Source: Alphaproteobacteria bacterium (GTDB lineage: Bacteria; Pseudomonadota; Alphaproteobacteria; GCA-2731375). From it: a stretch of 64,000 bases of DNA. The notes under the pieces were generated by a model. The model saw only the letters and a program-made list of their open reading frames with translations, ran no database searches and was not told the DNA's origin. The stretch spans positions 394,860 to 458,859 of the forward strand of contig CBDDBZ010000037.1 of NCBI GenBank assembly GCA_965225945.1, written 5' to 3'. Positions 43,513 through 64,000 of the stretch are shown here, one piece after another (the stretch's first letter is position 1; each line of letters starts with the position of its first letter). A program made the position numbers and the translations under genes.

Positions 43513-43662
43513 TTAGTTTCAATATCTTATCGGTGAAAACGGTTGCTGAGCGCCACTTTCAAGGCATCGGTGCATCTTCTGGGGGATCGCCCCAGCTTTC
43601 CGTTTGACTATAGCATGTTCGAGGAGGTAAAGTCGAGCTGGAGGAACCATCCAGGAGAAACC

Positions 43663-47600: not shown

Positions 47601-48005
47601 ATTACAGAAATAGAAGGATTGGCGGGGCTTGCCGCCAATAAGCCGGCTAGGGACTGGATCGACGCCGATCTGGATACGGCCTCGATTGAACTCGCCGATC
47701 TCGCGCAACGGTTCAACAAGTCCGAAGCGTTTGCGCGCGTGAAGGGCCGTCCCGATAAGCGTCACGCAATGGCAGTGATTGTTGGCGTCGGAGGCATACC
47801 GGCCCCTATAGGCGATGAGTTTGATGTTAGCGATGCGGAACTCGCAAATGTCGAAGCGCTAATCACCGATTTGCGAAAAGCGCTCCACAAGCAGCGAAAC
47901 GCCAAGCGGTCGGTAGTACTAGCCGCACTGGCAGAAATTTCTGCCGAGGTCATGCGGAACGAAGATGCGGAGCAGGCCGACCGCAGCAAGGCGGTAGTAC
48001 GATGA
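44619..48005 (+). CDS. sspC: Large ATPase (SspC-like)
   Basis: Walker A TGPYGSGKSS, Walker B FIDEMGKLLE, EWSKVQGRF, PLHP...FGQNQRSIFGFL; coupled to the genes on both sides. Confidence 0.8.
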   Translation: MSLSEKVYIAPRFQRAIRIDTDLKQPESLEGFMCPQSSAEVLLAMANHVSDTKQGAFTWTGPYGSGKSSLVVALSALLGNNKTLRTLAVSSIGEPVASDIRSKLQCGKKGWQTIAAVGRRENACHVIGEALIDSGIVPGRRKKQWDDKAIIEALVNTAGAKDHGGVILFIDEMGKLLEGAAQGEGDVYLFQQLAEAASRSDGRLIIVGVLHQAFEEYANRLSRDLRDEWSKVQGRFVDLVVNAAGEEQIELISRALSGEAPGKGHVKLAGKVAKEIQSRKAGISSYLDQALADCWPLHPVVASLLGPISRRRFGQNQRSIFGFLNSAEPHGFQDFLRTAEERDLYSPNLLWEYLQLNLEPSILASPDGHRWSIAVEAIERCEAMGGDQSQIELLKVISLVDLFKDRSGMVASDALLAASFPSLSKAKLRSMLDQLTEWSLISFRKFLGGYAVYAGSDFDIEAATERALGHIDGVDFEQLRALASLQPVMAKRHYHETGALRWFDVEIAPLSGALQHAEEFEPGASTIGLFLLEIPTQGESEDAAKDLCKRAARLSGRHDIIVGLSSRSWSINNLSRDLIALEHVRNGDSELRGDAVARREVNARIASLQAQLEQELQRAFDGAQWFQKQHSPKQLMHDELNGLASDLADKRYPLSPVLNNELLNRIKPSSNAIAGQNALLRKMVDNEGEERLGIVGFPAEGGMFESVLESSNLYANTPDGWRFVAPGEGLPDKAGLRPLWDATAEYLLKREDRSVTLSDVYDLWRSKPFGIKDGMMPVLAVAFILSKRNDVALYRQGVFQARFTDLDVDYLAKDPNDIQLRWMNLSDLARRLLSGLANIVRDLDETNSLQNLEPIDVGRGLISIYTSLPQWTQRTMRLSANAIRIRDLFKRARDPNQFIFNDLPQLASNSSDLESEDGFRRIVGSVRDALEEMVKAYPQMLQRLAERTLAELQVPNSSSQALNDLRDRASNIRELGGDFRLNAFVNRISSYHDAITEIEGLAGLAANKPARDWIDADLDTASIELADLAQRFNKSEAFARVKGRPDKRHAMAVIVGVGGIPAPIGDEFDVSDAELANVEALITDLRKALHKQRNAKRSVVLAALAEISAEVMRNEDAEQADRSKAVVR

Positions 48006-48838
48006 CGACGCCTGAAAAACATGTGCTTGGTCTTTCCGGCGGACGGGATAGCGCTGCGCTCGCCGTATATATGCGTCACTACCATCCCGCACTCGATATA
48101 AATTACTTTTTCACGGACACAGGAAAGGAATTGCCCGAAGTCTACGAGTTCCTTGGCCGCCTCGAAGGTGTGCTTGGCAAGCCTATTCAAAGGCTAAATC
48201 CCGATCGTGACTTCGATTTCTGGCTGAAACAATACAATTCCTTTTTGCCGTCGGCACAAACACGTTGGTGCACCAGGCAGCTGAAACTTCGTCCTTTCGA
48301 GATCTGGATCAAGCCGATGCTTGCCGAAGGGACAAAGGTCTTTTCCTACGTTGCCATACGCAGTGACGAGGAATACCGCGAAGGCTATACGTCCAAGCAT
48401 GAGAACCTCGTCGTGAGCCTGCCCTTTAAGGAAGCCGGAATCGACAAAGCCGGGGTTCTCGAACTGCTGGAATCTTCGGGCCTTGGTCTTCCGAAATACT
48501 ATAAATGGCGCACGCGAAGCGGGTGCACGTTTTGTTTTTTCCAACAAAAGATCGAGTGGGTCAGGCTGCGCGAGGAACACCCTGAATCCTTTGAAGAGGC
48601 GAAACGGTACGAAAAAACTGCAATGGACGGCGGGTCACCGTTCACCTGGAGCCAAGGAGAGTCGCTTGAGCAACTAGAGCAGCCGGAGCGAACCGAGCAA
48701 ATCAAAGCGGATCACGCGGAACGGCTTCGAAGGACGAAATCAAAGGCCTGCACGAATCCACTCAGACCCGACGATGAACCGCTGGACATTGACGATCTGT
48801 ATGGTCAGACAAAGGCATGTCTCGCCTGCCACAAATGA
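48002..48838 (+). CDS. sspD: PAPS reductase-family protein (SspD/DndC-like)
   Basis: LSGGRDS PP-loop, DTGKE, RWCT..LK, RSGCTFC, C-terminal CLACH. Confidence 0.85.
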   Translation: MTTPEKHVLGLSGGRDSAALAVYMRHYHPALDINYFFTDTGKELPEVYEFLGRLEGVLGKPIQRLNPDRDFDFWLKQYNSFLPSAQTRWCTRQLKLRPFEIWIKPMLAEGTKVFSYVAIRSDEEYREGYTSKHENLVVSLPFKEAGIDKAGVLELLESSGLGLPKYYKWRTRSGCTFCFFQQKIEWVRLREEHPESFEEAKRYEKTAMDGGSPFTWSQGESLEQLEQPERTEQIKADHAERLRRTKSKACTNPLRPDDEPLDIDDLYGQTKACLACHK

Positions 48839-48878
48839 TGATCCGGCTTGCTTTGAAATTGTCCCATAGGAGATATTC

Positions 48879-49400
48879 TTGAATTTTGGGGAAGTAGAAG
48901 ATTTTGCTCAAGGTGCTGCGGATGCAATAGCCAGATTCACCGTTCAATTCACGCTGTCAACAGACCAGTTGGATGACGATAATTACCGGCTCGACGGTCT
49001 GGAATGGCATTCAATCTGTTACGGCGAGGACGAAATCGAAATCGTGCCGAACGACCGGCGCGGTATATATGCATTCGCAATATGTAAAGAAAGCGAAGTG
49101 CTGCCACCGCACTGCTACGTCCTTTACATCGGCATCGCCGGGAGAAAGTCGAACCGGTCACTTCGCGAACGCTACAGAGACTACCTCAATGAAAAAAAGG
49201 TTCTGAAACGTGATCGCATAGCCTTCATGATTGGAACCTGGCATCACGTGTTACGTTTTTACTACGCGCCGGTTGACCAGAATATTACGTCAGATCAACT
49301 TGAAGGACTTGAAAGGCAGCTGAACAGCACTCTTCTTCCGCCGTTCTCACAGGGGGATCTGGAAGCCGAAATCAAGAAACAACGGAGGGCGTTCAGATGA
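48879..49400 (+). CDS. GIY-YIG nuclease-family protein
   Basis: RGIYAF...LYIGIAG...SLRERY...LEGLERQL....PPF; AGGAGA RBS and TTG start; 4-bp overlap with the DGQHR gene. Confidence 0.75.
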   Translation: MNFGEVEDFAQGAADAIARFTVQFTLSTDQLDDDNYRLDGLEWHSICYGEDEIEIVPNDRRGIYAFAICKESEVLPPHCYVLYIGIAGRKSNRSLRERYRDYLNEKKVLKRDRIAFMIGTWHHVLRFYYAPVDQNITSDQLEGLERQLNSTLLPPFSQGDLEAEIKKQRRAFR

Positions 49401-50656
49401 CAAAATCCAAGACCAAAGAAATCGTCCTCCCGGCTCTTCGAGGCGTCATGGGCACGTGGGTGTACTACACATGTCTCATGAATATGGAAGAGGTCGCGAG
49501 GCGCGTCAGTTACGCCGACGAGATACACAAGAACAAGAAGCTCTCAGATATGATTCAGCGCAGCCTAAAAGCGACGAGAAGCGCGCAGATCGCAGAATAT
49601 ATCGAGACACAGGACGAACGTTTCTTCAATTCGCTCGTGATTGCGACATATGGCGGGCAGCCCAACTGGAGCGCCATCGACAGCCTGAAAAGCAATAGCA
49701 AAAACAATATCACCGAAAGACTCTCAGAAGAGACTTTAAACTCCGTCGGCTTTTTATCGCTCAGTGGAAACGAAAAGCTCTTTGCGCTGGACGGTCAGCA
49801 TCGGCTGTCAGGTATCAAGAAGGCAATAAAGGACGGGCTGGAACAAGATCCCCCCGACGATTTGTCTGTCATTTTTGTTGCCCACAAAACTTCGCTCAAA
49901 GGCTTGGAGCGCACGCGGCGGTTATTCACCACACTCAACAAGACGGCAAAACCCGTCTCCAAGGGCGACATAATTGCGCTTGATGAGGACGATGTAATGG
50001 CGATTTGCGTCAGGCGCCTGATTGAGGAGACCAAGCTTTTTGAGGGAGAGCGAGTGGCGTTCGTTGCGAACAACAATCTTCCGACATCAAACACAAAAAG
50101 CCTCACCACGATCGGCAACCTTTATGACGTGGTTACGACCTTGTTCACCCGCGTTGAGACGGATCTTAAAACAGGCAAAGCCGAACTGCAAAGAGCCCGG
50201 CCCGACGACAAGACCCTCGGGGCATACTTCGATTTGGCTAAGCGGTATTTTGAGCTAATGGCGGCGAATTTCGGTGCCCTTTCCGAATTTTTCGCGGCAG
50301 AGGAAACTACCGGAGTTGTTAAAAAGTATCGTGGAAATCACGGGGGCAGCGCGCTGTTCCGGCCCATAGGGCTGGCCATATTCGCGGATATTGTGGCCCA
50401 CTTAAGCAAAAAATATTCTTTGAAGAAATCAATCGAAATTGCTGGAAAATTGCCAACGACACTTACTGATCTGCCTTTTGAGGGGCTTATGTGGGATTCG
50501 GCAAGTCAGCGCATCGACAACACAAACAGGGTTACGTTGCGCGAAGTCCTTTTATACATGCTGGACAATTCAAAATGGACGGACGCGACTGTATTAAAGC
50601 GTTATCAGCGGAGTATAGGAGACGAAGAAGCGGAACTGCCGGACAAAGTCGTTTGA
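49397..50656 (+). CDS. DGQHR-domain (DndB-like, ParB-fold) protein
   Basis: IQRSL...R...IAEYI...FFNSLV, LFALDGQHRL, RLFTTLNKTAKPVS. Confidence 0.88.
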   Translation: MTKSKTKEIVLPALRGVMGTWVYYTCLMNMEEVARRVSYADEIHKNKKLSDMIQRSLKATRSAQIAEYIETQDERFFNSLVIATYGGQPNWSAIDSLKSNSKNNITERLSEETLNSVGFLSLSGNEKLFALDGQHRLSGIKKAIKDGLEQDPPDDLSVIFVAHKTSLKGLERTRRLFTTLNKTAKPVSKGDIIALDEDDVMAICVRRLIEETKLFEGERVAFVANNNLPTSNTKSLTTIGNLYDVVTTLFTRVETDLKTGKAELQRARPDDKTLGAYFDLAKRYFELMAANFGALSEFFAAEETTGVVKKYRGNHGGSALFRPIGLAIFADIVAHLSKKYSLKKSIEIAGKLPTTLTDLPFEGLMWDSASQRIDNTNRVTLREVLLYMLDNSKWTDATVLKRYQRSIGDEEAELPDKVV

Positions 50657-50679
50657 TCGTTGACGCGAGAAAGCGCGCC

Positions 50680-53600
50680 CTAAATCATGTGTTCCAAGTC
50701 GTATTCCCTGAGTGTCGGAGCAAGCACTTCATAAGCTTCAGCTCTATTTTCCGAAAGAGATGAAAACTCGGCCACTCGGCCTAATTCGGACTTGATCAAT
50801 CTCTTCGCGTAGTCAGAATCGGTTTCGTACCCCTGCGGCAAAACGACGACAAAGTCGTGTGTCGTCGCCATTTCTTTTCCGGGCGAGCGCCGTAGAATTC
50901 TTCCCCGGCGCTGAACGAATTGGCGCGGATCACGAGAGCTCGCGAGAATATACGCCGTGCTGCACGCGGGTACGTCAATACCTTCGTCAAGGCAACGGAT
51001 CGCGACCATGGCATCAATGATGCTCAGCCTGAAATTCTCCAGAATTGTGTCCCGTTCCTTGCGTGTCTCCCGAGAGGTAAATCGAGAGACATCCCAGCTG
51101 CCCCGGTGGAGAAGTGAACTCACCGCCTCGACCTGTCGCTGTCCATGATCGGCATTTTCGGGCGCGGAATCCGGCCCGGCGTCCTCATCGGTCTCAACAG
51201 TGCCGTCGCCGCAATAGAACAATGTGTGCGGACACCGAGCGGCCCCTTCTAGAACCTCTTCGAGCGCACTCATCTTGTTGGCGGCAGAACCGATTAGCCG
51301 CGCGCGCCGCATCAGGAGTCCTGTTAGTTGGGGACTTGTGCCGGATGACGAAACACCCTTCCGCCTCGCCATGATCCTGCCGATCTGCTCTGACAAGGCG
51401 ACAAACTCATCGGCTTCCGCCGCAGTCAACTCAACCAACTTCGGATAGTAAAAATAGGGAGTGAGGACCTTATCCTCTATCGCTTGTTTCAGCGTATATT
51501 TCGATACGATATCGCCGTAGAAACCGGCCAAGCGCTCATTGCGCTCCTCGTCCAGATAATGTTCGGGCGTTGCCGAAAGGCCGATCCTATAGCGCGCGTG
51601 TTCGGGCAAGAAACCCTCATAGGCTTTCGATGTGTGGTGGTGACATTCATCTCCAATCCATAACAGCCGATTGCCTTTTATCTGCTTGAGGCATTTCTGG
51701 AATTCGGGGCTTTTTAGCGTCCTGTTCACGACGACGATCGCCGCGAATTTCCGGCTTCCCATCACCAGCTCATGGACAACACTCCTGAGTTTTTCCAGCC
51801 AGTTTGCCCGTGAAACGTAGCACCGGACCGGATAGATGTTGAATGAGGAAAGGATATCGACCCATTGATCGGCGAGGTTCTGATACGGCACAGCAATGAC
51901 GCAGGTCAGGCCGTCAATGCGTTCTGACAATTTTACGACGGCATGAATGGCAGTAATGGTTTTGCCGGCGCCGGTGGCTAGATCGAACGTTCCCTGAAAA
52001 TCGCCCTTAGAGTCCGTCCGGAGACTTTATGTAGGATTACAGAGTTTTCGGAGCATGAGTCGAATGGACGCGAGCTTGATGAAGGCGAGCGCGTTGCGGT
52101 TGAGGTTCTCCCAGTCCTTGGCCAGTCGGCGGCAGCGGTTGAGCCAGGCGATGGTGCGTTCGACCACCCAACGCCTGGGCTGGACGACGAAGCCCTTCAC
52201 CCGATCGGATCGCTTGACGATCTCGGTCTCGAGATCGGGCAGGATGCCGGCCAGGGCGCGGTGAAAGACCGGCCCCTGATAGGCGCTGTCGGCGAACAAT
52301 TTCCCGAGAAAGGGAAACAGACCGAACAAGGTCGCCAGCAGCGCGAGACCGCCGTCGCGATCCTGAACGTCGGCGGCGGTGACGATGCCGTGCAGCAGCA
52401 AGCCTTGCGTATCGACCAGAACATGCCGCTTCTTGCCCTTGATCAGCTTGCCGGCATCGAAGCCGTGGCTGTCGATGCGAGCCCCCCTTTTTCAGCGCTT
52501 TTCACACTCTGACTGTCGATGATGCAGGCCGTGGGGCTGGCTTCGCGCGCGGCTTTCTCGCGGCACTTGAGGTAGAGCGCATGATGGATGCGATCCAGCG
52601 TGCCGTCCCAGTTCCACAGGCCGAGGTAATCATGCACGGTGCTTCTGGGCGGCAAATCCTTGGGCAGCGCGCGCCACTGGCAGCCGGTGCTCAGAATGTA
52701 CATCACGCCGTTGATCACCTCGCGGATAGCGACGCGCCGTTTGCCGCCGCCGGGCTTGCCCGGCGGGATCAGCGGCTCGATATGCGCCCATTCCGCATCG
52801 GTCAGGTCGCTCGGATAACGCAGTTTGTCGCGGTTGTAGCGCGGGCGGTTGTCGGCAGTCCACATGGGGCACCTCAAGAGCAAATTCACCACCCCAGAGA
52901 ATCACAGCTGATTCAGCTCTTCAAGAGGGGCCGCCGGATAACCGATTCATCCGACTCATAAAGTCCCCGGACGGACACTTAGCCTTCCACGCATCAAGTG
53001 CAGCGATTTGATGTTCCTGCATCTTGAATGGTCGGCTATTGATGGTCTTTGGCTCTTTCGGCTTCGAGGATGTCGTGCTTGTCGTGCCGTAGATCTTGTC
53101 TCGCAACCTTGCAGCGATGGCCGCTTCAATCTCGGGATCAGGGGTGTAGTTCAGTGCCCTTGCGGTCGAAATCAGCTTTTCGCTGACGGCCGTCGGAATG
53201 TCCATGACTGCCGTGGCACGGCTTTCATTGCGCCAAAGCCGTTCAAAGCTATCGATATGCGGGTCGAAATATTCAGCTAGCTCAGGTCGCCAACTCGGAA
53301 AAACATTGATTGATTCATAGTTGAACGTCGGCAGCAGAGCGTGGGTGCTCTCGTTTGCCGATCCGGCAAAGACGAGCTTGTCTCCTGCCTTGTCGCTGAT
53401 GATGCCGATCTTGTCGTGATACATTCCGCGCACGCGAAGCGCGATCTTGACTTCGAGTCTGCCGTGCGCAACCAGCCACGCCAGAGTCTCAAAGCGGTTT
53501 TGAAACAGCGCGTCGCTGACATTTGTGATCTGATCGAGCAGTTCGGCCCCGATTTTTTCTGAAATCTCTCTCTGCTGATGGCCTTGCTTGATCGCTTCGA

Positions 53601-53823
53601 TGTCTTGCTCGTCGGAAAAAGCGCCCAAGATCAGGCGGATTTGACCGCCGTTTTTTACAAAAACCGAAAGCGCCTGCGCCGCGTAGCTGATCGTTGATGC
53701 CGAGAAATATCCTACGGCTCGATCATAGCGGTTAGCTACGGACAGCGCCGGTAAATAAAAGTCCTCCAAAATATTATCAAGATCGGACTTGTAGACACCT
53801 TGATATTGCAAATCACGCAACAT
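50680..53823 (-). pseudogene. PLD-like nuclease + SF2 helicase (PT-associated restriction enzyme, PbeA-like) interrupted by IS5 copy 2
   Basis: N-part YDRAVGYF, YHDKIG...GSANES; junction WKAK|GDFQGTFDLATGAGKT; DECHH, GLSATP, CLDEGIDVP, QRRGRILR. Removing the IS and one TSD gives 2172 nt (723 aa) in frame. Confidence 0.88.
52010..52978 (-). mobile_element. IS5 family element, copy 2
   Basis: Same sequence as copy 1; TTA TSD at 52007-52009 and 52979-52981. Confidence 0.95.
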
Positions 53824-54297
53824 CTAGAAAGTGATCCCTTCGATGTCCGGCTCACTGTCTTCGATGTTCAGATATCCGCTCTTCTTCAGAAGCTCCAGGA
53901 TGTCACGGTCCGGATACTCTCCTCCACTGCAAAGCATCGAGTCGCGAAGAATCTGAAAGCCGCCATTGGCGTACTCTTCGAAGATTTCGGCACACTTGCT
54001 CTCTTCCCCGTCCTTCAGAATGTCCGGATTTTTCGTTTCCGCCAGCGCGAGAAGATATATCAGGTCCTCGGCGTCCCCTCTTTCAAACTGCTGGTAAGAC
54101 ACGTCCTCGATACCGTCGCTGCGGTCCAACGGAATGCGCCGCCCCTCGGAGTAGCCCAGCATCGCCGCGAAACACAGGAGCTCACGGATCGTAGGAAAAA
54201 GCGTTCGGTCGGATCCCGGCAATTTGGTCACGGCCAGCCGCTGAACCATGTCCTCGTGTACGCGGCTTCGATTGATGTTCGGGGCTCTATCGCTCAT
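53824..54297 (-). CDS. DNA phosphorothioation-associated protein 4 family (dnd_assoc_4 / PbeD-like)
   Basis: FPTIRELLCFAAMLGY...LIYLLALAE....ILK...IFEEYANGG; coupled between the ATPase and the helicase. Confidence 0.8.
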   Translation of the reverse strand: MSDRAPNINRSRVHEDMVQRLAVTKLPGSDRTLFPTIRELLCFAAMLGYSEGRRIPLDRSDGIEDVSYQQFERGDAEDLIYLLALAETKNPDILKDGEESKCAEIFEEYANGGFQILRDSMLCSGGEYPDRDILELLKKSGYLNIEDSEPDIEGITF

Positions 54298-57296
54298 TCT
54301 GCGGTCACCTTCACAATTTCGGTCCCGTCGTAGGAAGAGTCGAAGATTGATGTCCTGAACTCCTCACCTTTGAAATACCTGCTTTCAGGCTTCCTATCGC
54401 CAATTGAATCTTTGTTGTGACGCACAAGCAGGAATTCTGCACCGATATGGCTTTGCAGTGCCGAGAGAACCTCATCGGACCCTTGAGAGCGTGATAACAG
54501 CAATACGACCTGGCGCGACATTCTAGGGATGAACTCCGCCGTTGTGCGGCGATAGGAATCGTCCAATTGGCCGAACGGAGAGTCCAGCACCAATGGCGCT
54601 ATCGTGCCCGGCAAGAGTTTATAATCCTCCGCGCTTTCCCTAAGAGTCCGTCCGGAGACTTTATGTAGGATTACAGAGTTTTCGGAGCATGAGTCGAATG
54701 GACGCGAGCTTGATGAAGGCGAGCGCGTTGCGGTTGAGGTTCTCCCAGTCCTTGGCCAGTCGGCGGCAGCGGTTGAGCCAGGCGATGGTGCGTTCGACCA
54801 CCCAACGCCTGGGCTGGACGACGAAGCCCTTCACCCGATCGGATCGCTTGACGATCTCGGTCTCGAGATCGGGCAGGATGCCGGCCAGGGCGCGGTGAAA
54901 GACCGGGCCCTGATAGGCGCTGTCGGCGAACAATTTCCCGAGAAAGGGAAACAGACCGAACAAGGTCGCCAGCAGCGCGAGACCGCCGTCGCGATCCTGA
55001 ACGTCGGCGGCGGTGACGATGCCGTGCAGCAGCAAGCCTTGCGTATCGACCAGAACATGCCGCTTCTTGCCCTTGATCAGCTTGCCGGCATCGAAGCCGT
55101 GGCTGTCGATGCGAGCCCCCCTTTTTCAGCGCTTTTCACACTCTGACTGTCGATGATGCAGGCCGTGGGGCTGGCTTCGCGCGCGGCTTTCTCGCGGCAC
55201 TTGAGGTAGAGCGCATGATGGATGCGATCCAGCGTGCCGTCCCAGTTCCACAGGCCGAGGTAATCATGCACGGTGCTTCTGGGCGGCAAATCCTTGGGCA
55301 GCGCGCGCCACTGGCAGCCGGTGCTCAGAATGTACATCACGCCGTTGATCACCTCGCGGATAGCGACGCGCCGTTTGCCGCCGCCGGGCTTGCCCGGCGG
55401 GATCAGCGGCTCGATATGCGCCCATTCCGCATCGGTCAGGTCGCTCGGATAACGCAGTTTGTCGCGGTTGTAGCGCGGGCGGTTGTCGGCAGTCCACATG
55501 GGGCACCTCAAGAGCAAATTCACCACCCCAGAGAATCACAGCTGATTCAGCTCTTCAAGAGGGGCCGCCGGATAACCGATTCATCCGACTCATAAAGTCC
55601 CCGGACGGACACTAACCTTTGCAAATTCGACAAGCGCGGCTGTGAACGCAAGCCCGAGCAACTGGTTCTCGCCGCTTGATTTCGGTAGCGCCATTCCATC
55701 GGAATTGACCAGACTGATCCCATAGTCGTCCGACATCCGCAGGGTGAGCACCTTCCGCGTTGTCGCTTCCAAGATCTTGCGTATTCCAGCCCGCAGCACT
55801 TTGCGCGCCTGCGTCTCTTCCTCCACCAGTTGCAGCTCAAGAATGCCCTTGATCGTTTCGCACAAATTCCGGCGTTTTGCGTAGATTGCGGTTTGCTGGT
55901 CCTGCTGTGCAAGAGTGTTGATATCGCGGTCAATCTGCGTCTTTTCGCGTTCGGCATTCCCAATGCCGGTCTCGATTGATCCGATATTCCGGTCGATCTC
56001 GGACAGCTCTTTTCGCAGTTGCTCCCGTCTTTCCTCACGAGAAGCGATATCGTCGAAGTTTATGCCCTTCAACTTGTCATGAATTTCGCCGAGCTGCGCT
56101 TCAATCGTCCCGAACTCCTCATTCGCTTCCGTCAAACGTTCTTTTGCTTTGATGAGACGATTTGGCGCCTTGGCGCGTTCCGATTTAAGGCTGCCGAGCC
56201 GCGCGCGGACCTTTGTGATCCTGTCGCGCATGATCTGATTGGCTGCCTTCTCCAGAAGTTTTGCTACCTGCTTTGATGCTTCACTGCCCGGTGGCAAAGG
56301 GGCTCCGCAGATACAGGTTTCCGCTTCGAGTACGTCTTTCACGAACTCCTCGTTATACGGGGAGGGAATTCGGCCGCGATGGGCCTTGTCGTTCAGAAAA
56401 TCGAATGTCTCTTCTGTGATCTTCTTCGAGACGATAAATCTGCCGTTCTCGCCAAGCCACTTATAGACCTCGCCGGCGGCCTCCTTTTGCCTCTTTTCGA
56501 CACGCTTTGACTGCTCGGTCAACCGCTCGCGGCTGCGTTGCAGTTCCTTTGCGGCGCTCGTATTGCGGAGCTTTGTATCAATGTCGTTGATTTGCTCGTC
56601 TGTAAGCTGCCTGCTCTTTTCAAGTCTTGCAATTTCCTGCGTTGCCGTGTCGATCTGAGAAACGAACGCATCGATGCGGCGGTTCAGCTCCTCAATCTTA
56701 TTCGTAGCGGGTGTTGAAGGAATCTGCTTGCGGAACTGATTGGAAATCGCCTGCAGGTCATCGACCGCTGTCTCGATTAGAGAACACCCCAAAATATCTC
56801 GAACCGCGCCGCGTATCGAAGCGCGGTTCTTCTCCCCAAGAAAGACCTCGGCATGTTCACCGTCAAACAGGAAATGTGACGCCATTTCACGTGGGATGAC
56901 CGTGTTGATGAATGTATCGGGCGACTGGACATCAATCTGGCCCCCGCTATCAAAACGCGCCACCACAAAGCTGCGACCCGCATCAGAAGCAGGACCGGCC
57001 CTGAAGAAACGCTTGGCAATGTAATGGTTGCCGTTGTGTTCGAACAACACCTCAACCGATGCAAGGGTCCTGCCTTCCTTCTTTGCGTCGTAATTTAGGA
57101 TGTCTTCCTTCTTTTCAAACCGGCTAGTTGTCTCTCCATAAAAGCACCAGAGCAAAGCATTTAGTAAGGTGGTTTTTCCGACACCGTTTTCCGCGTAGAT
57201 GAGTGTTACATTCTTGTCTTTATCGGACGAGAATGTAATCGAGCACTCCCCATAAAAACACCGGAAATCTTTCAATCTTATTTCGTCAAGTATCAT
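54294..57296 (-). pseudogene. SMC/DndD-like ABC ATPase (PbeC-like) interrupted by IS5 copy 3
   Basis: AENGVGKTTLL, FLFDGE, Zn-hook CICG, coiled coils, KSSGE|IS|LVLDSPFGQLD. Removing the IS and one TSD gives 2031 nt (676 aa) in frame. Confidence 0.88.
54644..55612 (-). mobile_element. IS5 family element, copy 3
   Basis: Near-identical to copies 1 and 2 (one substitution seen near 54907); TAA TSD at 54641-54643 and 55613-55615. Confidence 0.95.
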
Positions 57297-57530: not shown

Positions 57531-58668
57531 TACCCATCCTACCCCAAAACCCGAAATTCCTGATGGGTGATAATACGGAAGTTATCGGTTACTTTATCTC
57601 GGAATTCTCGCCAGTTTTTGGGGATTATTTCGCGCAGGAATTTGATAATTGCCTGGGCAAATTGTTGTTGGGTTGGATAGAAGCGGTTATGGGTGACATG
57701 GGCGTGCATCACAGCCCACAGGCGCTCAATCGGGTTCAAATGGGGGCAATAGGCCGGTAACCGGATGAGATTGATGCGGCAATCGTCGCGCGATAGCCAC
57801 TGCCGGACTGTCTGGCAGCGATGGTAGGGCGCATTGTCCCAGATGACATGTATTGTTGATTTTGTCGGATTGCTGGCTTCGATCTTTGCCAGAAGTTTAA
57901 CCGCACTATCACCATCAACCGTGACAGGTTCGACAAACGGTGCGTCGAAATTCTCCAGACAAAGGGCGCCGTGAATATTGACACGGCCCCGGCCGGAAGT
58001 GGTTTTGACAGCAGGGTTTGAGCCCTTGCACACCCAACCAAAGGCGGGCTTCGTTTGATACTCAGGATGCACAGCATCAGCGAAATAGACCGTCTCATCT
58101 GCGGGCAATTCATTCAACAGGTTCTCGTAAAAGGCGATGAAAGCGCGTTGCTCTGCCTCGTCGGCCACACGCGGCACCGCTTTGGGTTTGCGATACTCAA
58201 ACTCCAGCCGGTGCAGCAATTTCAGGCAACCGGAGTGCGAATAGACCGCGCCATATTGCCCTGCAATATGCGCCCGGACTTCCCCAGTCCCACGGCAAAA
58301 ACGGTTCTCCAGCCAGCCCGACAGAGCCAACTCCTGCTCAACCGCCAACCGCGACAGGCCACCCTGCCAACCATCCTGCGCCAGAACTTCCCAACCGTCG
58401 CGTTGATACGCCTTGAACCACCCCCGGATAGTGTCGTCGTCAAGATAGAGAAACTCCGCGATCTGTGCACAACTCTTGCCATCATCCAACAGCAAAATAG
58501 CATTCGCACGCCGCGCAATCCCGTGCTCTTCACGCTGACGACGAACGCAACGCTCCAGCTCAAGACGCTCGCTGGTGGAAAGAAAGTGCGGATCAATCAT
58601 GCAACAAGTGGAATCCATCCGCACAAAAACGTCAAACAAAAAATTCGGAAGTTCAGGGAGTCGGAGTA
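57531..58668 (-). mobile_element. IS630 family element with a single-ORF transposase (57539 to about 58600)
   Basis: TA-flanked; RRANAILLLDDG HTH, YFADAVHP, IWDNAPYH, PHLNPIERLW. Confidence 0.88.
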
Positions 58669-58730
58669 TAGCATTCAAAAATACAGCGTATGATTAGCAA
58701 ATTTTCATGTCTGTTTTGGTGACAACACGT

Positions 58731-59035
58731 TCACCTTGAAATCCCTTTCCCGCCTTCAACGCCAAGCCCCTTTCCTTTGCTGACTCGGGTCGCCTGCCTC
58801 CACGGCACGAGCGAGAAGTCTTTGCCTTTCTGTAGAACCGCAAATCGTCCAGAAGCCAGTTTGACAGTCTTGCTAATCTGCCCTTGCAATCGCTCCCCAT
58901 CCGCCGTTGGCTGATAGCTCAAGCCAAGCTCATTCTGAAGTTTCTGAGCAACCCGGTTCACCTCCCTCCGCTGGAGCGTCTCAAGCAATTTTCGCCGGGC
59001 GACAAGTTGGCCACCCTGCTCGATCATCAGCTCTT
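58731..59035 (-). pseudogene. DUF3363 relaxase-associated C-terminal fragment
   Basis: LLETLQRREV...LASGRFAVL....FSLVPWR. Confidence 0.65.
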
Positions 59036-59049
59036 CCCACACAAGCCAT

Positions 59050-59411
59050 TGTTGCCGTCAGCCGCCGCGGCGAGTAGCCCTTTGGACGGTCGTGAAGCCC
59101 CTCCAATCCCTTTGCATTGTAACGAACAACCGCGTCGCGAAGCGTTTGGCGATCCATCCCCGCAAGCCGCGCGGCATCAGCCCGGGGCATCTCCTCCAAA
59201 GCATTCGCGATCCCATAGGCCCGCGACGCCGCTCGACCGTACGATTCCACGCGAGCCCAGCGCCGAAGCTCCAAAGGCGTCAAATCATCCCGTATCTTGA
59301 GTGCTGATCCCATGACATCCCCCACATCTGGTGGGAGACCATAGAATCACAATCCGCCATCATCCGCCATCAATGAATATCCCGAGAGTCAATTCAGGCG
59401 CTCACTGGTAT
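59050..59411 (-). pseudogene. IS630 N-terminal remnant with left end
   Basis: ALKIRDDLTPLELRRWAR...AARLAGMDRQTLRDAVVRYNAKGLEGLHDRP. Confidence 0.75.
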
Positions 59412-59447: not shown

Positions 59448-60401
59448 ATGTCCCACGTCTTCCTGTCCTACTCGCACGCCGACGAGGCCCTACGCAACGA
59501 GCTTGAGAAGCACCTCGCCGGGCTCCTCCGGCAGGGCGTGATTACGACCTGGCACGATCGCCGGATCGGTCCCGGCGAGGAGCTGCACGGCCAGATCGAC
59601 GAACAGCTCAACACCGCGGACATCATTCTGCTCCTGGTCAGCGCCGACTTTCTCGCCTCCGACTATTGCTATGACGTGGAAATGATGCGGGCTATGGAGC
59701 GCCACGAACGGGGCGAGGCGCGCGTCATCCCAGTCATCCTGCGTCCCTGCGACTGGCACGGCGCACCGTTCGGCAAACTGATGGCAGTGCCCCCGGACGG
59801 CAAAGCCGTTACCAAGCACGCAACGCTGGACGACGGATTCCTCGAGGTTGCCAAGGCAATTCGCCAGGTTGCGGGGCCGGGGGACATCCGGACCCCCGGC
59901 CCCGCAACCAGCCCACCGGCACCCGGCGCGGGTGGCAGCCGCCCGGCTTCGCACGCTCCACGTTCGAGCAATCTCAGGGTGCGCAGCGGGTTCACCGACC
60001 ACGACCGCCACGCCTTCCTCACTGAATCCTTCGAGTACATCGCCCGCTATTTCGAGAACTCCCTGACCGAGCTCCAGGGGAGGAACGATCGGGTCGAGGG
60101 CAATTTCCGGCAAGTCGATGCCAACCGCTTCGAGGCAAGAGTATTCGTCAGCGGCGAAGAACGCACAGTCTGCAGCATCTGGCTCGGGGGGCTCATGGGA
60201 ACCGACGGACTGTACTTTTCCTTCGGCGGACTGGGAGGCGGCAATAGTTTCAACGAGTCGATGTCGGTATCCGACGACGGCTACACATTGTTGCTTCAGC
60301 CTCTCGGCATGGCGAATTTCGGGCGACGAGACGACGGCGCGCTCACCATGGAGGGCGCAGCAGAGTACTTCTGGACCCTCTTCATCGAGCGGCTCCGGTA
60401 G
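59448..60401 (+). CDS. TIR domain protein (TIR_2) with an uncharacterised C-terminal domain
   Basis: VFLSYSHADE, WHDRRI.PG, LLVSADFLASDYCYDVEM, VIPVILRPCDW; Pro/Gly linker; about 140-aa C-terminal domain. Confidence 0.88.
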   Translation: MSHVFLSYSHADEALRNELEKHLAGLLRQGVITTWHDRRIGPGEELHGQIDEQLNTADIILLLVSADFLASDYCYDVEMMRAMERHERGEARVIPVILRPCDWHGAPFGKLMAVPPDGKAVTKHATLDDGFLEVAKAIRQVAGPGDIRTPGPATSPPAPGAGGSRPASHAPRSSNLRVRSGFTDHDRHAFLTESFEYIARYFENSLTELQGRNDRVEGNFRQVDANRFEARVFVSGEERTVCSIWLGGLMGTDGLYFSFGGLGGGNSFNESMSVSDDGYTLLLQPLGMANFGRRDDGALTMEGAAEYFWTLFIERLR

Positions 60402-60409
60402 CGTCGCCA

Positions 60410-61252
60410 ATGGCAGGGTCGGCGCGGCCAGTGTCCGGCAATTCGTCTGTCGTGAAACGCGTTTCAGGATTGTGCCGCGCAGCCCGCGGCTGGGCCGCCG
60501 CTCTGGCGTTTATCGTCATGGTCGTGAATGCCGTGCCCGCGTTCGCGGGGAGCGAAGGCCGGACGTCCGGCTGGGCGGGAACCTATGCCGGGGCGTTTGT
60601 CGGCGTCGGGCGCCCGGACAACCGGATCGTCGATGTCGACGGGTTCGCGGACTGGGGCAATCCCGGGTCCAGGACGGGTTACGCCGGAGCAGGCGCTGTC
60701 GGCGGACTGCTGTTGGGCAAGCGGTTTGGCATCGGCGGCGTCCGGTTCCGGGTCGAGGCCGACGCGATGTTCGGCGACCTGTCGGCGGGTACGAACCGGC
60801 TCGATCCGGGATGCACCGACGAAGCGGCGGCGTCGCGGTTTCGGTGGGTCGCCACGGTGCGCGTCCGGGTGGAAGAGACAATAGGCGATGTCGGTGTGTT
60901 CGTGTCCGGCGGGCCGGCGCTGGCCCGGATCGTCAATTCGGTCACCGATACCGACTACAGCGGGAGCACATGCCTGGAAACGGATCTGCGCCTGGACGCC
61001 GACGACTCGTTTCGCCGCGTTTCGACGAAAGTCGGATGGGCGATCGGCGCCGGTTTCGAGATGCCGCTGGCCGCGCGTTGGGCTCTCCGGCTCGACGGTT
61101 CGTATCTGGACTTCGGCAGCGAGACCTATCGCGTGAACCTGTCCGGCAACAATTCATGCGGGCCCGGCGGCGCCATGGCGCCCTGCCGCTACACCGTCAG
61201 GAACGGGCTGGGGGTCGCCCGCCTGGGGATCGTCTATCGGTTCGGCGAATAG
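60410..61252 (+). CDS. Outer-membrane beta-barrel protein (Omp25/RopB-like)
   Basis: Signal-like hydrophobic segment, WAGTYAGAFVG, GWAIGAGFE, SYLDFG, C-terminal LGIVYRF. Confidence 0.75.
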   Translation: MAGSARPVSGNSSVVKRVSGLCRAARGWAAALAFIVMVVNAVPAFAGSEGRTSGWAGTYAGAFVGVGRPDNRIVDVDGFADWGNPGSRTGYAGAGAVGGLLLGKRFGIGGVRFRVEADAMFGDLSAGTNRLDPGCTDEAAASRFRWVATVRVRVEETIGDVGVFVSGGPALARIVNSVTDTDYSGSTCLETDLRLDADDSFRRVSTKVGWAIGAGFEMPLAARWALRLDGSYLDFGSETYRVNLSGNNSCGPGGAMAPCRYTVRNGLGVARLGIVYRFGE

Positions 61253-61696
61253 GCTATGCCGGCGTTGGCGGATGCGGCGCCGTGCACGGCGTGCAAATTT
61301 GCTTGGAGTAACGGTTCGGCCGCACCGTTGTGGGCCGGGCGGGTGGAGGTGGTGAACGACCACTCGGGGAAGAGATCGGGTCGGCTGCGCGCACCGATCT
61401 CACCCGCGGGACGGAGGATTCCACGGCCCGACCGAACGGATACTGCTGCTAATCTACAATCCTCCGGCACACGGTGGAGAACACCCTGCACACCCACGGA
61501 TTTTCTAGAGCTAGGTAGGACTACCTGCGAGCAAACGTTCTTGGGGAAAATCGCTCTGGCGAGCGACCAGGATCAGCAGGACAGGTGAAAAAAGCCGCGA
61601 AATGCTTTCCGGGTTCTACGGCCGAGTGCGATTAACAGGGTGAGCGTGACGAATATTCTCTCACGAACCGCTGCAGAGCTGAAAAGAGGGAGCGAA

Positions 61697-62488
61697 ATGG
61701 CTCGACCGTTGACGAAAACCAAAGGGGGAGGCGGACTGTATGCGCGTCCGATAGCGGTCGGGGCTCAGATCGACGAGGCCGTCTGCCTCTCACGATCCGA
61801 GTTGCAGACCCGTCTCTTGATCGCCGATCGCAACGCCCCCGGCTATCTGCGCTCCGAGTGTCTCGTCCATCTGGTGCGACAGGGGCGGCGGTCTGACGAC
61901 CAACAGCTGATGAGCGCTGTGTTGCCAGTCTTGCTTGGGCGATGCGAAGCGAATCTCTTGGTTAAGGTCCCGGACGGTGGAATGCCGGACGCTGCAAGCC
62001 TTCGGCAAGAAATTCTGGAAGACCTGACGGATCTTTTCGTGACAGACGGAACGGGCGCCCTCCCCGACGAGCTCGATTTCTACGAATGTCGGTTCAACAA
62101 AGCGTTCAGGGCCCTGCGCATCGATGCGGTTCGTCGGGATGTACGGCGGCGGAAACGCGGCATTACTGTGATCGACCTGCCGCCATCCGAAGCGGCAAGT
62201 GAACCAGACGGTTATGAGGATGCATTCGCCCGAGTGTCGGACACATTCAAGATTCTGCCGACGCAGGAGTGGGATGTTTTCCGGGAACCGTTCGTGAAGG
62301 CGATCGAAGCTCTGCCGGCCGATGAACGCGACGCCGTCATCCTCGTCCATGTCCTCGGGTACAAGGAAGAGTCCGAGGATCCCGAGAAGGAAACAGCCGC
62401 GACGCGGTGCAACTGCACGGGACGAACGATTCGCAATCGGCTCACACGGGCGGCTGCGAAGCTTTCCCGCTTTAAGGAGGACCTATGA
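61697..62488 (+). CDS. Divergent sigma-70/ECF-like factor
   Basis: Region 2-like FYECRFNKAFRALRIDAVRR; region 4-like AIEALPADERDAVIL...TAATRCNCTGRTIRNRLTRA; RBS GAGGGAG before ATG at 61697 (GTG at 61640 possible). Confidence 0.6.
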   Translation: MARPLTKTKGGGGLYARPIAVGAQIDEAVCLSRSELQTRLLIADRNAPGYLRSECLVHLVRQGRRSDDQQLMSAVLPVLLGRCEANLLVKVPDGGMPDAASLRQEILEDLTDLFVTDGTGALPDELDFYECRFNKAFRALRIDAVRRDVRRRKRGITVIDLPPSEAASEPDGYEDAFARVSDTFKILPTQEWDVFREPFVKAIEALPADERDAVILVHVLGYKEESEDPEKETAATRCNCTGRTIRNRLTRAAAKLSRFKEDL

Positions 62489-63141
62489 ACCAGACTCTCT
62501 GCGCAAGCCCGCCCGCATTGCGGGAAGCCCTGTATGTCCTGTCCACAGAGCAGGACGTGCCGGACGCGAAGCTGTTGGACGATGTCGTTCGCCGGTATCC
62601 CGAATTCGGAGAAGAACTGACCGAGTTCGCTATCGCTATTGCGGTAGACGCCCAGCGCGGTGAGCGCGCCGTGGAAGATGCGGAAGGGGGGATCGATCCG
62701 AGTGCCGTCAGCCTGGCTGTCAGCCGAGCGATGAGCCATTTCCAAAACCGACTTCATGCTGTGACGGTGGGTGCGGCTGAGGCGAGGAGCACACGTGCGG
62801 ACATCGCCGGTGCACCCAACCCTTTCTCGGGTTTACCGCGTAACGAATTCCGCACTTTCGCCGCGCGGCTGAACGCGAATACCGTCTTCGTTGGCAAGCT
62901 GCGTGACCGTCAAATCGACCCGGCCACAATGACGCCAGGTTTTCAAAGACGGGTGGCAGACGAGCTGAAGGCACCGCTTGATGTCGTGGTGGCGCACTTC
63001 GCCGCGCGCCAGGCAGCCCCAACCGGGCAGTTTTTCAAGGCGGAAGGCAAGCCATCAACAGGGGCACAGCAAAGCTTCGAGGAGGCGGTGAGAAGCTCGG
63101 GTTTGAGTGAGGCCCAGCAGAAAACGCTGTTGGAGCTCTGA
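62485..63141 (+). CDS. Hypothetical protein (possible anti-sigma / XRE-like HTH), coupled to the sigma-like gene
   Basis: ATGA overlap; N-terminal LLDDVVRRYPEF.EEL.EF; FAARLNANTVFVGKLRDRQI...VADEL. Confidence 0.7.
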   Translation: MNQTLCASPPALREALYVLSTEQDVPDAKLLDDVVRRYPEFGEELTEFAIAIAVDAQRGERAVEDAEGGIDPSAVSLAVSRAMSHFQNRLHAVTVGAAEARSTRADIAGAPNPFSGLPRNEFRTFAARLNANTVFVGKLRDRQIDPATMTPGFQRRVADELKAPLDVVVAHFAARQAAPTGQFFKAEGKPSTGAQQSFEEAVRSSGLSEAQQKTLLEL

Positions 63142-63145
63142 TCTC

Positions 63146-64000
63146 ATGGATCCCTTCGAACCGATCCGTTCCAAGGCAGCGGCACTTCATGAAGAATTGC
63201 TCTCGGAGGGGAAAGACCCGTTCGATCCGCTCGCTCTTGTTCAAGCTGCCGTGGAGCGCCGCGATCTGGACCTCGCATGGCTGCCGCAGGGTGACCCGGC
63301 ACTGAAGGGCGCGCGGGCTCTATACGACGACCAGGGCGGAACGATTTGCTGCGAGGAGGAAGGTGATCCAGCAACCCGGGCGCTACTCGTCGCGCACGAA
63401 CTTGGACATTCCGAACTTCACGCTGGCTCCGTGACTTGCGCCGGATCCGATATCGATCCCTCGCGGAGCACCGAGGCTGCGCCAGTTGGTCTACAGCGTG
63501 TCGAGGATTACGGCGCGCGCGAGCGGCGCGAACTGCAGGCCAATGTTTACGCGCGCGAGCTTCTGCTCCCGCGCACCTTTGTGCGCGGGCTGCACCTCGA
63601 GCAGAATGTGACCGGCGCAGCGATCGCTGACCGAACGAAATTTCCCGTGGCGCTGGTTCGGCAACAAATGTTTGACGCGTTGCTCCTGCCGCCGATGGCG
63701 GTCGACGACGAGTCCACACCCGAGCCACCGTCTGCACGCAAGCCCGATCCGTCCCAAGAACGCGCTGCGGCGCACCGCGGCAAGCCCTTTCAGTTACAGG
63801 CAGGGCCCGGAACCGGCAAAACGCGAACGCTGGTCAAACGCGTGCTCTCACTGCTGCGCGAAGACATCGATCCGGCCGCGATCCTTATTCTGACTTTCTC
63901 CAATCGCGCCGCCGGCGAGCTGTCGGAGCGACTGACGGCGGCCGCGCCAGAGGCGGCATCAAAACTCTGGATCGGAACATTTCACGCCTTTGGTCTCGAT
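63146..64000 (+). CDS. ImmA/IrrE metallopeptidase fused to a UvrD/REP SF1 helicase (runs off the window)
   Basis: Not in the ORF track. Manual translation MDPFEPIRSKAAAL...LVAHELGH...RELQANVYARELLLP...DPSQERAA...QAGPGTGKTRTLVKR...ILTFSNRAAGELSERL...IGTFHAFGLD. Confidence 0.88.
   Translation, partial: MDPFEPIRSKAAALHEELLSEGKDPFDPLALVQAAVERRDLDLAWLPQGDPALKGARALYDDQGGTICCEEEGDPATRALLVAHELGHSELHAGSVTCAGSDIDPSRSTEAAPVGLQRVEDYGARERRELQANVYARELLLPRTFVRGLHLEQNVTGAAIADRTKFPVALVRQQMFDALLLPPMAVDDESTPEPPSARKPDPSQERAAAHRGKPFQLQAGPGTGKTRTLVKRVLSLLREDIDPAAILILTFSNRAAGELSERLTAAAPEAASKLWIGTFHAFGLD

Follow-up and report, generated by a model that had tools for sequence, protein, structure and literature searches.

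CapP and IrrE are small stand-alone proteases of the M78 kind with their own C-terminal sensor domain, and in ImmR/ImmA of ICEBs1 and DdrO/IrrE (PprI) of Deinococcus DNA damage leads an M78 peptidase to cut a regulator of the XRE family. In the available part of PMC13373217, CapP is described as being activated by single-stranded DNA (ssDNA) and as cleaving the helix-turn-helix (HTH) repressor CapH, and operons of the ubiquitin-like (Ubl) systems Bub and Bil are described as often preceded by DNA-damage controllers of the CapH+CapP kind. Bil is a validated anti-phage system, tested under an inducible rather than its native promoter according to the accessible text of the Millman preprint, and the biological role and trigger of the far commoner Bub operons are called open in the accessible parts of PMC13373217 and the Bub preprints. 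Here we describe three co-directional genes that occupy the last 2.4 kb of a 64,000-nucleotide stretch from an Alphaproteobacteria bacterium (GCA-2731375 lineage; assembly GCA_965225945.1, contig CBDDBZ010000037.1, positions 394,860 to 458,859 of the forward strand), hereafter the window. The genes encode a sigma-like factor (gene 1), a small partner (gene 2) and an M78 metallopeptidase fused to a superfamily 1 (SF1) helicase (gene 3). We consider it rather probable that this trio is a self-contained transcriptional switch guarding an adjacent Ubl conjugation operon, in that the helicase-protease would destroy an anti-sigma factor and the freed sigma factor would transcribe the operon.

The trio was compared with each of the described controllers. 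Like CapH+CapP, which control cyclic-oligonucleotide-based anti-phage signalling systems (CBASS), Bub and other operons (PMC13373217, available part), it places an M78/IrrE-type HExxH peptidase directly upstream of an immune operon and beside a small partner with a putative XRE-like HTH, and DNA damage or ssDNA would be its expected trigger. Unlike in that pair, the peptidase forms the N-terminus of a protein of about 1144 residues with a helicase and a four-cysteine nuclease-like domain, instead of a small stand-alone protease; the HTH of the partner is C-terminal, with an N-terminus predicted to bind sigma; and an additional gene encodes a dedicated sigma-like factor, the predicted output being sigma activation rather than de-repression. 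The DNA-binding domains of DdrO and ImmR are also among the structural matches of gene 2. ImmR/ImmA and DdrO/IrrE are not known to have a sigma factor or a helicase fusion, their substrate is a repressor with an N-terminal HTH, and their regulons are mobile-element genes and repair genes. To extracytoplasmic function (ECF) sigma/anti-sigma pairs that are released by proteolysis, such as sigmaE-RseA, the trio is similar in its sigma-like factor of two predicted domains, thought from the model to be held by the N-terminal helices of the adjacent, presumably co-transcribed partner, in its apparently autoregulated promoter and in the proposed proteolytic release, and the structural matches of gene 1 include sigmaE/RseA, AlgU/MucA, SigK/RskA and SigW/RsiW. 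It differs from them in that the partner appears cytoplasmic, the protease is a DNA-helicase fusion rather than a membrane or Clp protease, gene 1 is too divergent for the standard models, and one promoter copy lies inside the sigma gene. Other controllers beside Bub and Bil operons, CapK + CapS and CapW/BrxR (PMC13373217, available part), share the genomic position and presumably the task, the gating of Bub/Bil by a DNA signal, but they are a kinase with a STAS-winged-HTH protein and a WYL-HTH protein, respectively, with no sigma factor, peptidase or helicase. Judged by these likenesses, the trio reads as a hybrid of a CapH+CapP controller and an ECF sigma/anti-sigma switch, and it has the defining feature of neither (a stand-alone protease, a curated ECF score).

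The preliminary description of the window, made from the sequence alone, had called for a synteny search and had guessed at downstream effectors such as ubiquitin-like E1/E2/JAB genes. When one genome per species was scanned, at least 584 gene 3 relatives were recovered; 80 loci were kept, and the studied set comprised 64 loci (L006 to L069), all of which except L053 and L068 had a tblastn match to the M78 region. By tblastn and all-against-all clustering, 52 loci were found to have a relative of gene 2 and 48 a relative of gene 1, with constant spacing. In a further six loci the forms are divergent (c26/c27), and hhalign joined them to gene 1 (99.0%, E 3.8e-18) and gene 2 (99.4%, E 5e-22), giving totals of 58/64 for gene 2 and 54/64 for gene 1, with upstream DNA missing in three of the 64. 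The trio is thus conserved, its arrangement is far beyond chance, and it recurs in dozens of loci from several phyla. The guess about effectors held for the relatives, in that a same-strand Ubl operon lies directly downstream of the trio in 51/64 loci; the operon itself is absent from this window and this assembly. BilA-BilB-BilC-BilD follows the trio in 17 loci (PADLOC E 1e-53 to 1e-168), type I Bub (Multi_ubiq, JAB+ThiF, DUF6527) in 16 and type II Bub (Ubl, DUF6791+ThiF, DUF6527) in 18, the two types being defined as in the available part of 10.1101/2024.11.21.623953, section 5. BilA-D genes are directly downstream in the six closest loci (L006-L009, L011, L012) and on the Rhizobium leguminosarum conjugative plasmid pRL11, whose gene 3 is 81.5% identical and where the annotation lists two hypothetical genes, an 'ATP-dependent helicase' and four more hypotheticals that match Bil genes in size. 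A Ubl or a ThiF gene follows in L066 and L065, L054 and L068 have a Ubl operon nearby in another arrangement, four of the 64 loci stop at a contig edge, and the last five (L020, L022, L033, L052 and L060) are followed by other genes or by nothing recognisable.

Gene 3 was found in records of Alpha-, Beta- and Gammaproteobacteria, Acidobacteria, Chloroflexi, Latescibacterota, Planctomycetes and Verrucomicrobia. Among 32 further genomes from the family of the window no copy was found, and of 400 genomes sampled across the class two had one; the trio genes are accessory. As a separate observation on the related loci, a Metallophos (SbcD-like) gene of about 400 aa stands just after the Bub operon in L063, L038, L034 and L049. 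An open reading frame (ORF) of 875-1168 aa comes next in the first three, and in L049 it is 345 aa, cut by the locus end. This gene and ORF may form an additional defence module linked to the operon.

Between gene 3 and the Ubl gene, the spacers have in common TT(T/A)CCGG, 15-17 nt, and CGATT(A/G), that is, TTWCCGG-N15-17-CGATTR. The strict motif was found within 150 nt after the gene 3 stop in 27/57 loci (2.9 per kb), upstream of gene 1 in 10/48 (0.9 per kb), and in a 110-nt slice of gene 1 in 26/48 (4.9 per kb), compared with 10 matches in the remaining 2.59 Mb on both strands (0.004 per kb). The 64-kb window holds exactly two matches, both in the trio (P1 and P2), where 0.06 were expected and 0/100 shuffles reached two; the whole 6.27-Mb genome holds five matches to a slightly stricter form (-10 block CGATYR rather than SGATYR). 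On pRL11 there are also exactly two, one 61 nt ahead of gene 1 and the other in the interval from gene 3 to bilA, 18 nt beyond the gene 3 stop. The motif is non-palindromic, shows the two-block spacing of the sigma type and lies 60-90 nt before start codons, and a given locus repeats the same -10 variant (the two sites read CGATCA in L006 and in L011, and GGATTA in L012).

Codon use at the internal copy was examined in 45 aligned gene 1 sequences and is given as counts, not probabilities, since the sequences are related. Ahead of the conserved F/Y the amino acid is variable (A, L, D, N, I, V, S), but the third base of its codon is T in 34/45. Arginine is encoded by CGG in 28/31 versus 21% of all Arg codons in these genes, alanine by GCG in 36/38, and isoleucine by ATT in 30/37 versus 34% overall; the copy in the window reads TTC CGG ... 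GCG ATC G. Because protein conservation alone would not fix synonymous positions, the internal copy appears to be constrained as DNA, with synonymous codons forced to the motif. We propose P1 as the -35/-10 element for the gene 1 sigma factor, which would imply autoregulation, and P2 as an internal sigma-dependent promoter for genes 2 and 3. From these positions, gene 1 seems to have a cognate two-block promoter before its own operon and regulon. Apart from the motif, the leaders of L010 (11845-11899), L025, L026, L031, L041, L043, L018, L028 and L037 have a small GC hairpin between the post-gene-3 motif and the start codon of the Bub Ubl gene, and a longer outer pairing in the L010 group would cover the ribosome-binding site. 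With 6 pairs, 4 of them compensatory, and only -5.9 kcal/mol in 9 sequences, this hairpin was too weak to claim.

Gene 1 matched the Pfam model Sigma70_r4_2 (27.5 bits vs a cut-off of 25.7), had no Pfam match to Sigma70_r2, and scored below the cut-off of the curated TIGR02937 (sigma70-ECF) model (22.9 bits vs 42.9). An AlphaFold2 model was built from a 45-sequence alignment, with a predicted local distance difference test (pLDDT) score of 86.9. All of its leading Foldseek matches were ECF sigma factors (Mycobacterium tuberculosis sigmaH, RpoE/NepR, sigmaE/RseA, AlgU, SigW and SigK), with about 200 columns aligned and with TM-scores that were low because the domain orientation differs. When aligned with VIA-align, region 4 matched region 4 of E. 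coli sigmaE on -35 DNA (2h27_D; Z 9.2, root-mean-square deviation 1.9 Å, 67 aa), and two-domain alignments to SigL, BldN, SigK and AlgU gave Z 7.8-9.0 over 135-160 residues (SigL, 6dv9_F, Z 9.0 over 160 aa). The model therefore points to a divergent two-domain ECF-type sigma factor, which we filed as sigma-like and not as a member of a recognised ECF group. Since it missed the TIGR02937 cut-off, standard annotation would leave it unnamed; 'hypothetical protein' is the standard annotation of both genes 1 and 2, and also the PGAP label of the gene 1 counterpart on pRL11.

Gene 2 had no match in Pfam, NCBIfam or PADLOC. When 1.84 billion representatives were searched with its profile, 2295 clusters were returned, 502 of them at E <= 1e-30, and because the best 150 listed of the 2295 clusters span only 182-228 aa, gene 2 appears to represent a compact, unnamed family. 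Its AlphaFold2 model (pLDDT 85) consists of four N-terminal helices, a five-helix unit at residues 108-175, an extended stretch and two short helices, and had no Foldseek match at E <= 0.001; no membrane segment or zinc motif was seen in the protein. We distinguished a four-helix N-terminus (about 5-93) predicted to bind sigma, an XRE-like HTH (about 108-175) and the stretch [F/Y]KAxxKP at 183-190. When genes 1 and 2 were modelled together with both alignments, the interface score ipSAE was 0.84 in two runs and 0.87 in a third, whereas the best of three controls scored 0.01. The mark set for this score was reached by 116/157 solved complexes and by 2/215 mismatched pairs. The runs agreed in at least 87% of contacts with a partner pLDDT of at least 77, and residues 5-93 of gene 2 contacted gene 1 at residues 40-151, its region-2-like part, and at residues 196-239, its region 4. 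Gene 2 is thus predicted to grip gene 1 in the manner of anti-sigma domains on ECF sigma factors. Because many sigma/anti-sigma complexes have already been solved, the pass indicates likeness to these complexes, and supports, without showing, that the pair binds. The preliminary description had taken gene 1 for sigma-like and gene 2 for its partner, either anti-sigma or repressor; the predicted fold of gene 1 supports the former, and the predicted anti-sigma-like binding agrees with the latter.

Gene 3 was next dissected by domain. It matched Peptidase_M78 at residues 55-173 (37.0 bits vs a Pfam cut-off of 22) and the N-terminal part of UvrD-helicase from residue 202 (85.9 bits vs 23), so that the peptidase, ending near residue 175, leads straight into the helicase and is not a stand-alone protease. 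HELGH (residues 84-88) is followed by ELQANVYARELLLP, and the helicase shows the Q motif, motif I (AGPGTGKT), Ia (TFSN) and Ib (TFH) within the window. In PADLOC the best non-helicase match was capP (E 5.2e-8), and the helicase part was best matched by GajB and a helicase of the defence-associated reverse transcriptase (DRT) systems. The best NCBIfam matches were PcrA, Rep and UvrD, far below every equivalog cut-off (PcrA 286.8 vs 911); since all of these cut-offs were missed, the helicase appears to be a member of the UvrD/PcrA/Rep family and not an orthologue of any of the three. A phmmer search against PDB sequences gave nothing useful for the M78 part of gene 3 or for the nuclease-like part of L006. 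Of 7999 candidates scored in a database search, 2992 were longer relatives, and the best of them, P0001, shares 98% identity with the 284 residues available and is 1144 aa long, with the domains M78, UvrD, UvrD_C and PDDEXK_1, the last at 46.5 bits vs a cut-off of 22.

Fifty-five full-length relatives from the fetched loci were then aligned. HExxH and helicase motifs Q and I-VI were at least 90% conserved, and four cysteines of the C-terminal PD-(D/E)XK-like domain, which lies outside the window, were kept in 53-54/55 (C914, C1120, C1123 and C1129 in L006 numbering). Iron-sulfur nuclease domains carry four conserved cysteines. Just before the conserved 'TG', where we presume the ExK site to be placed, arginine was found in 40/55 and 38/55 and glutamate in at most one of the 55, and the motif II aspartate was present in 40/55, with asparagine in the closest relatives of the window. 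The domain therefore looks catalytically degenerate and may be an inactive, cluster-bearing DNA-binding module. Gene 3 resembles UvrD/PcrA/Rep, AddA/AddB/RecB and GajB in its SF1A helicase core with all motifs and in a C-terminal PD-(D/E)XK-like domain with four cysteines, but differs from them in its N-terminal peptidase and in nuclease catalytic residues that are apparently replaced. The features that the preliminary description had read at this locus (an ATGA overlap, a 4-bp gap, and an HELGH metallopeptidase fused to SF1 motifs Q, I, Ia and Ib) were all found in the sequence, and its suggestion of a nuclease at the helicase C-terminus agrees with the nuclease-like, seemingly degenerate domain of the relatives.

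These domains raise the alternative that gene 3 serves chiefly as an effector of defence, as a helicase-nuclease of the RecB/AddA or GajB kind by which foreign DNA is unwound and degraded, in which case the sigma factor and its partner would only set its level, and the link to Bil/Bub would reflect island neighbourhood or a combined system rather than control. We regard this as unlikely. A plain nuclease would have no role for the fused M78 peptidase, and the motif after gene 3 together with the same-strand Ubl operon in 51/64 loci argues for control. The helicase motifs are intact, and the PDDEXK_1 score of P0001 and the GajB and DRT matches of the helicase part would fit an effector, but arginine replaces both expected ExK residues in most relatives and the motif II aspartate is kept in only 40/55, on an assignment of motifs that is presumed. 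Five loci also lend this alternative some weight, since they have gene 3 and downstream DNA but no Ubl operon (L020, L022, L033, L052 and L060), and L020 adjoins a methylase and BrxL.

The C-terminal half of gene 2 bears on a second alternative. Residues 108-175 aligned structurally with XRE/lambda-repressor-type HTH domains (Z 4.8-6.3), among them the DNA-binding domains of CapH (7t5u_A, Z 5.1), DdrO (Z 4.9) and ImmR (Z 4.8), which we take to be the three known M78 substrates, and HTH_31 was present in 54% of the members of an Atlas neighbour cluster. The most conserved stretch of the protein is [F/Y]KAxxKP, with P190 invariant in 47 sequences. Gene 2 could accordingly be read as a CapH/ImmR-like repressor whose HTH recognises the bipartite motif as its operator and which the M78 peptidase removes, with gene 1 as an accessory factor that does not determine transcription, and the known partners of M78 peptidases are all XRE repressors. 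This is less probable again, in our judgement. The motif lacks the palindrome of an operator, keeps two blocks at the 15-17-nt spacing of a sigma promoter, and stands some 60-90 nt before start codons; the HTH sits in the C-terminal half of gene 2, unlike in CapH, ImmR and DdrO; and gene 1 matches gene 2 in conservation, adopts a sigma fold in its model and would, by the predicted complex, be held by the gene 2 N-terminus. The repressor and anti-sigma roles of gene 2 are not mutually exclusive. That the trio is instead an immunity or induction module of a mobile element (cf. ImmR/ImmA in ICEBs1), controlling excision or transfer rather than defence, is very improbable, since for all its M78 peptidase, its patchy spread across phyla and plasmids (112 plasmid records, 33 of them conjugative) and the many insertion sequence (IS) elements of the window region, its conserved neighbours are Ubl operons only, with integrase and transfer genes not among them, and all 13 matches on viral contigs cover the helicase core only, the M78 domain being covered in 0/13.

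Returning to a switch that guards a Ubl operon, we propose the following course from what the computation shows, namely the protein folds, the predicted contact between sigma factor and partner, the conserved gene order, the placement of the motif and the constrained codons. Gene 1 would be a private ECF-like sigma factor, and gene 2 its anti-sigma factor, with the N-terminal helices inserted between the sigma2-like and sigma4 domains of gene 1. Gene 3 would be both sensor and actuator, in that its SF1 helicase and four-cysteine nuclease-like domain engage abnormal DNA (ends or single strands, arising from phage infection or damage). We infer that this engagement switches on the fused M78 peptidase and that gene 2 is then cleaved, a step taken from the likeness to CapP/CapH; the XRE-like domain and the [F/Y]KAxxKP stretch would be the likely handle or cleavage site. 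The freed sigma factor would direct RNA polymerase to TTWCCGG-N15-17-CGATTR promoters, namely P1 before its own gene, P2 for genes 2 and 3 as a feedback, and the front of the Ubl operon. In the closest relatives the guarded operon would be BilABCD, which here would be lost beyond the contig end. This course follows the circuit put forward in the preliminary description, and those of its elements that were open to computation were supported.

Several points weigh against this switch. The effector operon and three quarters of gene 3 are absent from the assembly of this genome, and the presence of both here is extrapolated from relatives (P0001, 98% identity over 284 aa; L006, with 56%, 60% and 70% identity for genes 1, 2 and 3). 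The loci are mutually related, so that the counts overstate independent support, and the five loci named above have downstream DNA but no Ubl operon. The strict motif is absent after gene 3 in 30/57 loci, several of which have variants such as CTTCCG...CGACTT by a by-eye reading only. For gene 1, the Foldseek E values are borderline (1e-3 to 1e-2, best 1.2e-3), and the sigma2-like half has no Pfam match and alone reaches only Z 5.5-5.9 in VIA-align. For gene 2, the HTH matches are weak, at a level (Z about 5) that numerous further XRE proteins reach as well, and the listed structural matches of its N-terminus (residues 1-100) were generic helical proteins (Z 5-6), with no anti-sigma chain among them. 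Finally, a cut at the C-terminal motif of gene 2 alone would leave the N-terminal sigma-binding part on the sigma factor, whose release would require something more, for instance breakdown of the remnant.

We give an even chance to the wider claim that the trio represents a fourth, unnamed class of immune-operon controller. In this class a translocating SF1 helicase with an iron-sulfur, nuclease-derived DNA-end module would be the sensor of an M78 protease that destroys an anti-sigma factor, thereby freeing a private sigma factor with a promoter in its own coding sequence, and in many Proteobacteria, Acidobacteria, Chloroflexi and other groups type I Bil and both Bub types would have the trio as their natural on-switch.

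The positions of the trio and of neighbouring features are collected in Table 1. Contig C37 (458859 bases) ends exactly at the last base of the window, which is the last 64 kb of that contig; the gene 3 reading frame continues to base 64000, and it is because the contig ends there that gene 3 was missing from the ORF track. Contigs from other public runs extend past base 64000, one of them by about 2.2 kb, and the break in gene 3 is therefore an assembly boundary and not biology. A 3330-base contig from another run matched 62882-64000 with its first 1119 bases, and the trio region was fragmented and polymorphic in the contigs of these runs. Three of four public runs lacked 2 bases at 61675, a point of the gene 1 leader that falls after P1 and ahead of the ribosome-binding site, and the same three differed from the window by about 1% substitutions over the trio, so that close variants of the locus circulate in several studies. 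A GTG at 61640 was rejected as the start of gene 1, as it sits at the proposed transcription start just past the -10 block, and the alignment of relatives begins at the ATG. No remainder of gene 3 was found elsewhere in the 39-contig assembly, where the other matches were ordinary helicases on C23 and C31 only, and BilA-D were not found there by tblastn with Bil and Bub proteins from the loci of 7 relatives. A JAB/E1-like match on C30 was rejected as a continuation of gene 3, since it belongs to a separate Prok-E2_E + ThiF operon behind a methylase gene. That second, unrelated Ubl operon of the same genome (C30, 1370-3742; locus L086) lies near the contig start and encodes a 331-aa Prok-E2_E protein and a 424-aa ThiF-type E1, with a DNA methylase gene ahead on the other strand and a trypsin-like peptidase downstream.

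Table 1. Positions of the trio, its candidate promoters and signature motifs, and the neighbouring features of the window
Feature	Position	Strand	Description
Gene 1	61697..62488	+	ATG start; 263 aa; predicted divergent two-domain ECF-like sigma factor with a conserved N-terminal extension of ~50 residues
Gene 2	62485..63141	+	218 aa; unnamed family
Gene 3	63146..64000	+	First 285 codons of a ~1144-aa protein; M78 metallopeptidase and UvrD/PcrA-type SF1 helicase
P1	61606..61634	+	Promoter-like TTTCCGG-N16-CGATTA; ends 62 nt before the gene 1 ATG
P2	62278..62306	+	Second motif copy, TTTCCGG-N16-CGATCG, within the gene 1 coding sequence, ~180 nt before gene 2
GAGGGAG	61686-61692		4 nt ahead of the gene 1 ATG
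ATGA	62485-62488		Overlap of the gene 2 ATG with the gene 1 TGA
Gene 2/gene 3 gap	63142-63145		4 bp
HELGH	63395-63409		Peptidase motif of gene 3
Motif I	63800-63823		Helicase motif of gene 3
DNA-phosphorothioation-type set	42331-57296		Cysteine desulfurase, DUF4007, 1128-aa ATPase, PAPS-reductase-like gene, DndB, SNF2-type helicase, PLD nuclease, PbeC/DndD-like ATPase
PbeC/DndD-like ATPase	55590-57296		Matches positions 1-559 of a 629-position model
TIR-domain protein	59448-60401	+	317 aa; full-length PADLOC ThsB1 match (E 2e-123); Pfam TIR_2
Outer-membrane beta-barrel gene	60410-61252		After the TIR gene
IS genes and fragments	37668-39673, 54661-55526, 57539-58678, 58731-59325		IS21 IstA/IstB-like, IS5-like, IS630-like 379-aa transposase, DUF3363 and HTH fragments

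A defence island lies upstream of the trio in the window. It includes the phosphorothioation-type set and the TIR-domain gene and is broken up by the IS genes and fragments; the end of the PbeC/DndD-like ATPase abuts an IS5-type transposase, and this ATPase may be truncated.

No published description of the trio was found in full-text literature searches, which did not cover subscription-only papers (e.g. Burroughs et al. 2011). The term 'helicase' is absent from the accessible text of the two Bub preprints, the CapK/CapS paper, the Hor Bil preprint, the Chambers preprint and Iyer 2006. Nor was it found in the accessible supplementary files of the Bub preprint, where Table S1 gives gene IDs only for CapP/CapH, and some entries named 'CapP' could be the fusion. 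The trio would show how an M78 'CapP-like' protease can be wired to another sensor, a helicase, and to another output, a sigma factor, and it offers an example of a predicted promoter constrained inside a coding sequence. Its upstream position, with a recognisable promoter before the Ubl genes, provides a concrete and cheap experimental handle, and a search for the motif is a route to the rest of the sigma regulon. For the Ubl operons the trio supplies a candidate signal, DNA ends or single strands. If the wider claim of a fourth controller class is true, the Bil and Bub ubiquitin-like systems would be induced by a DNA signal and would not be constitutive.

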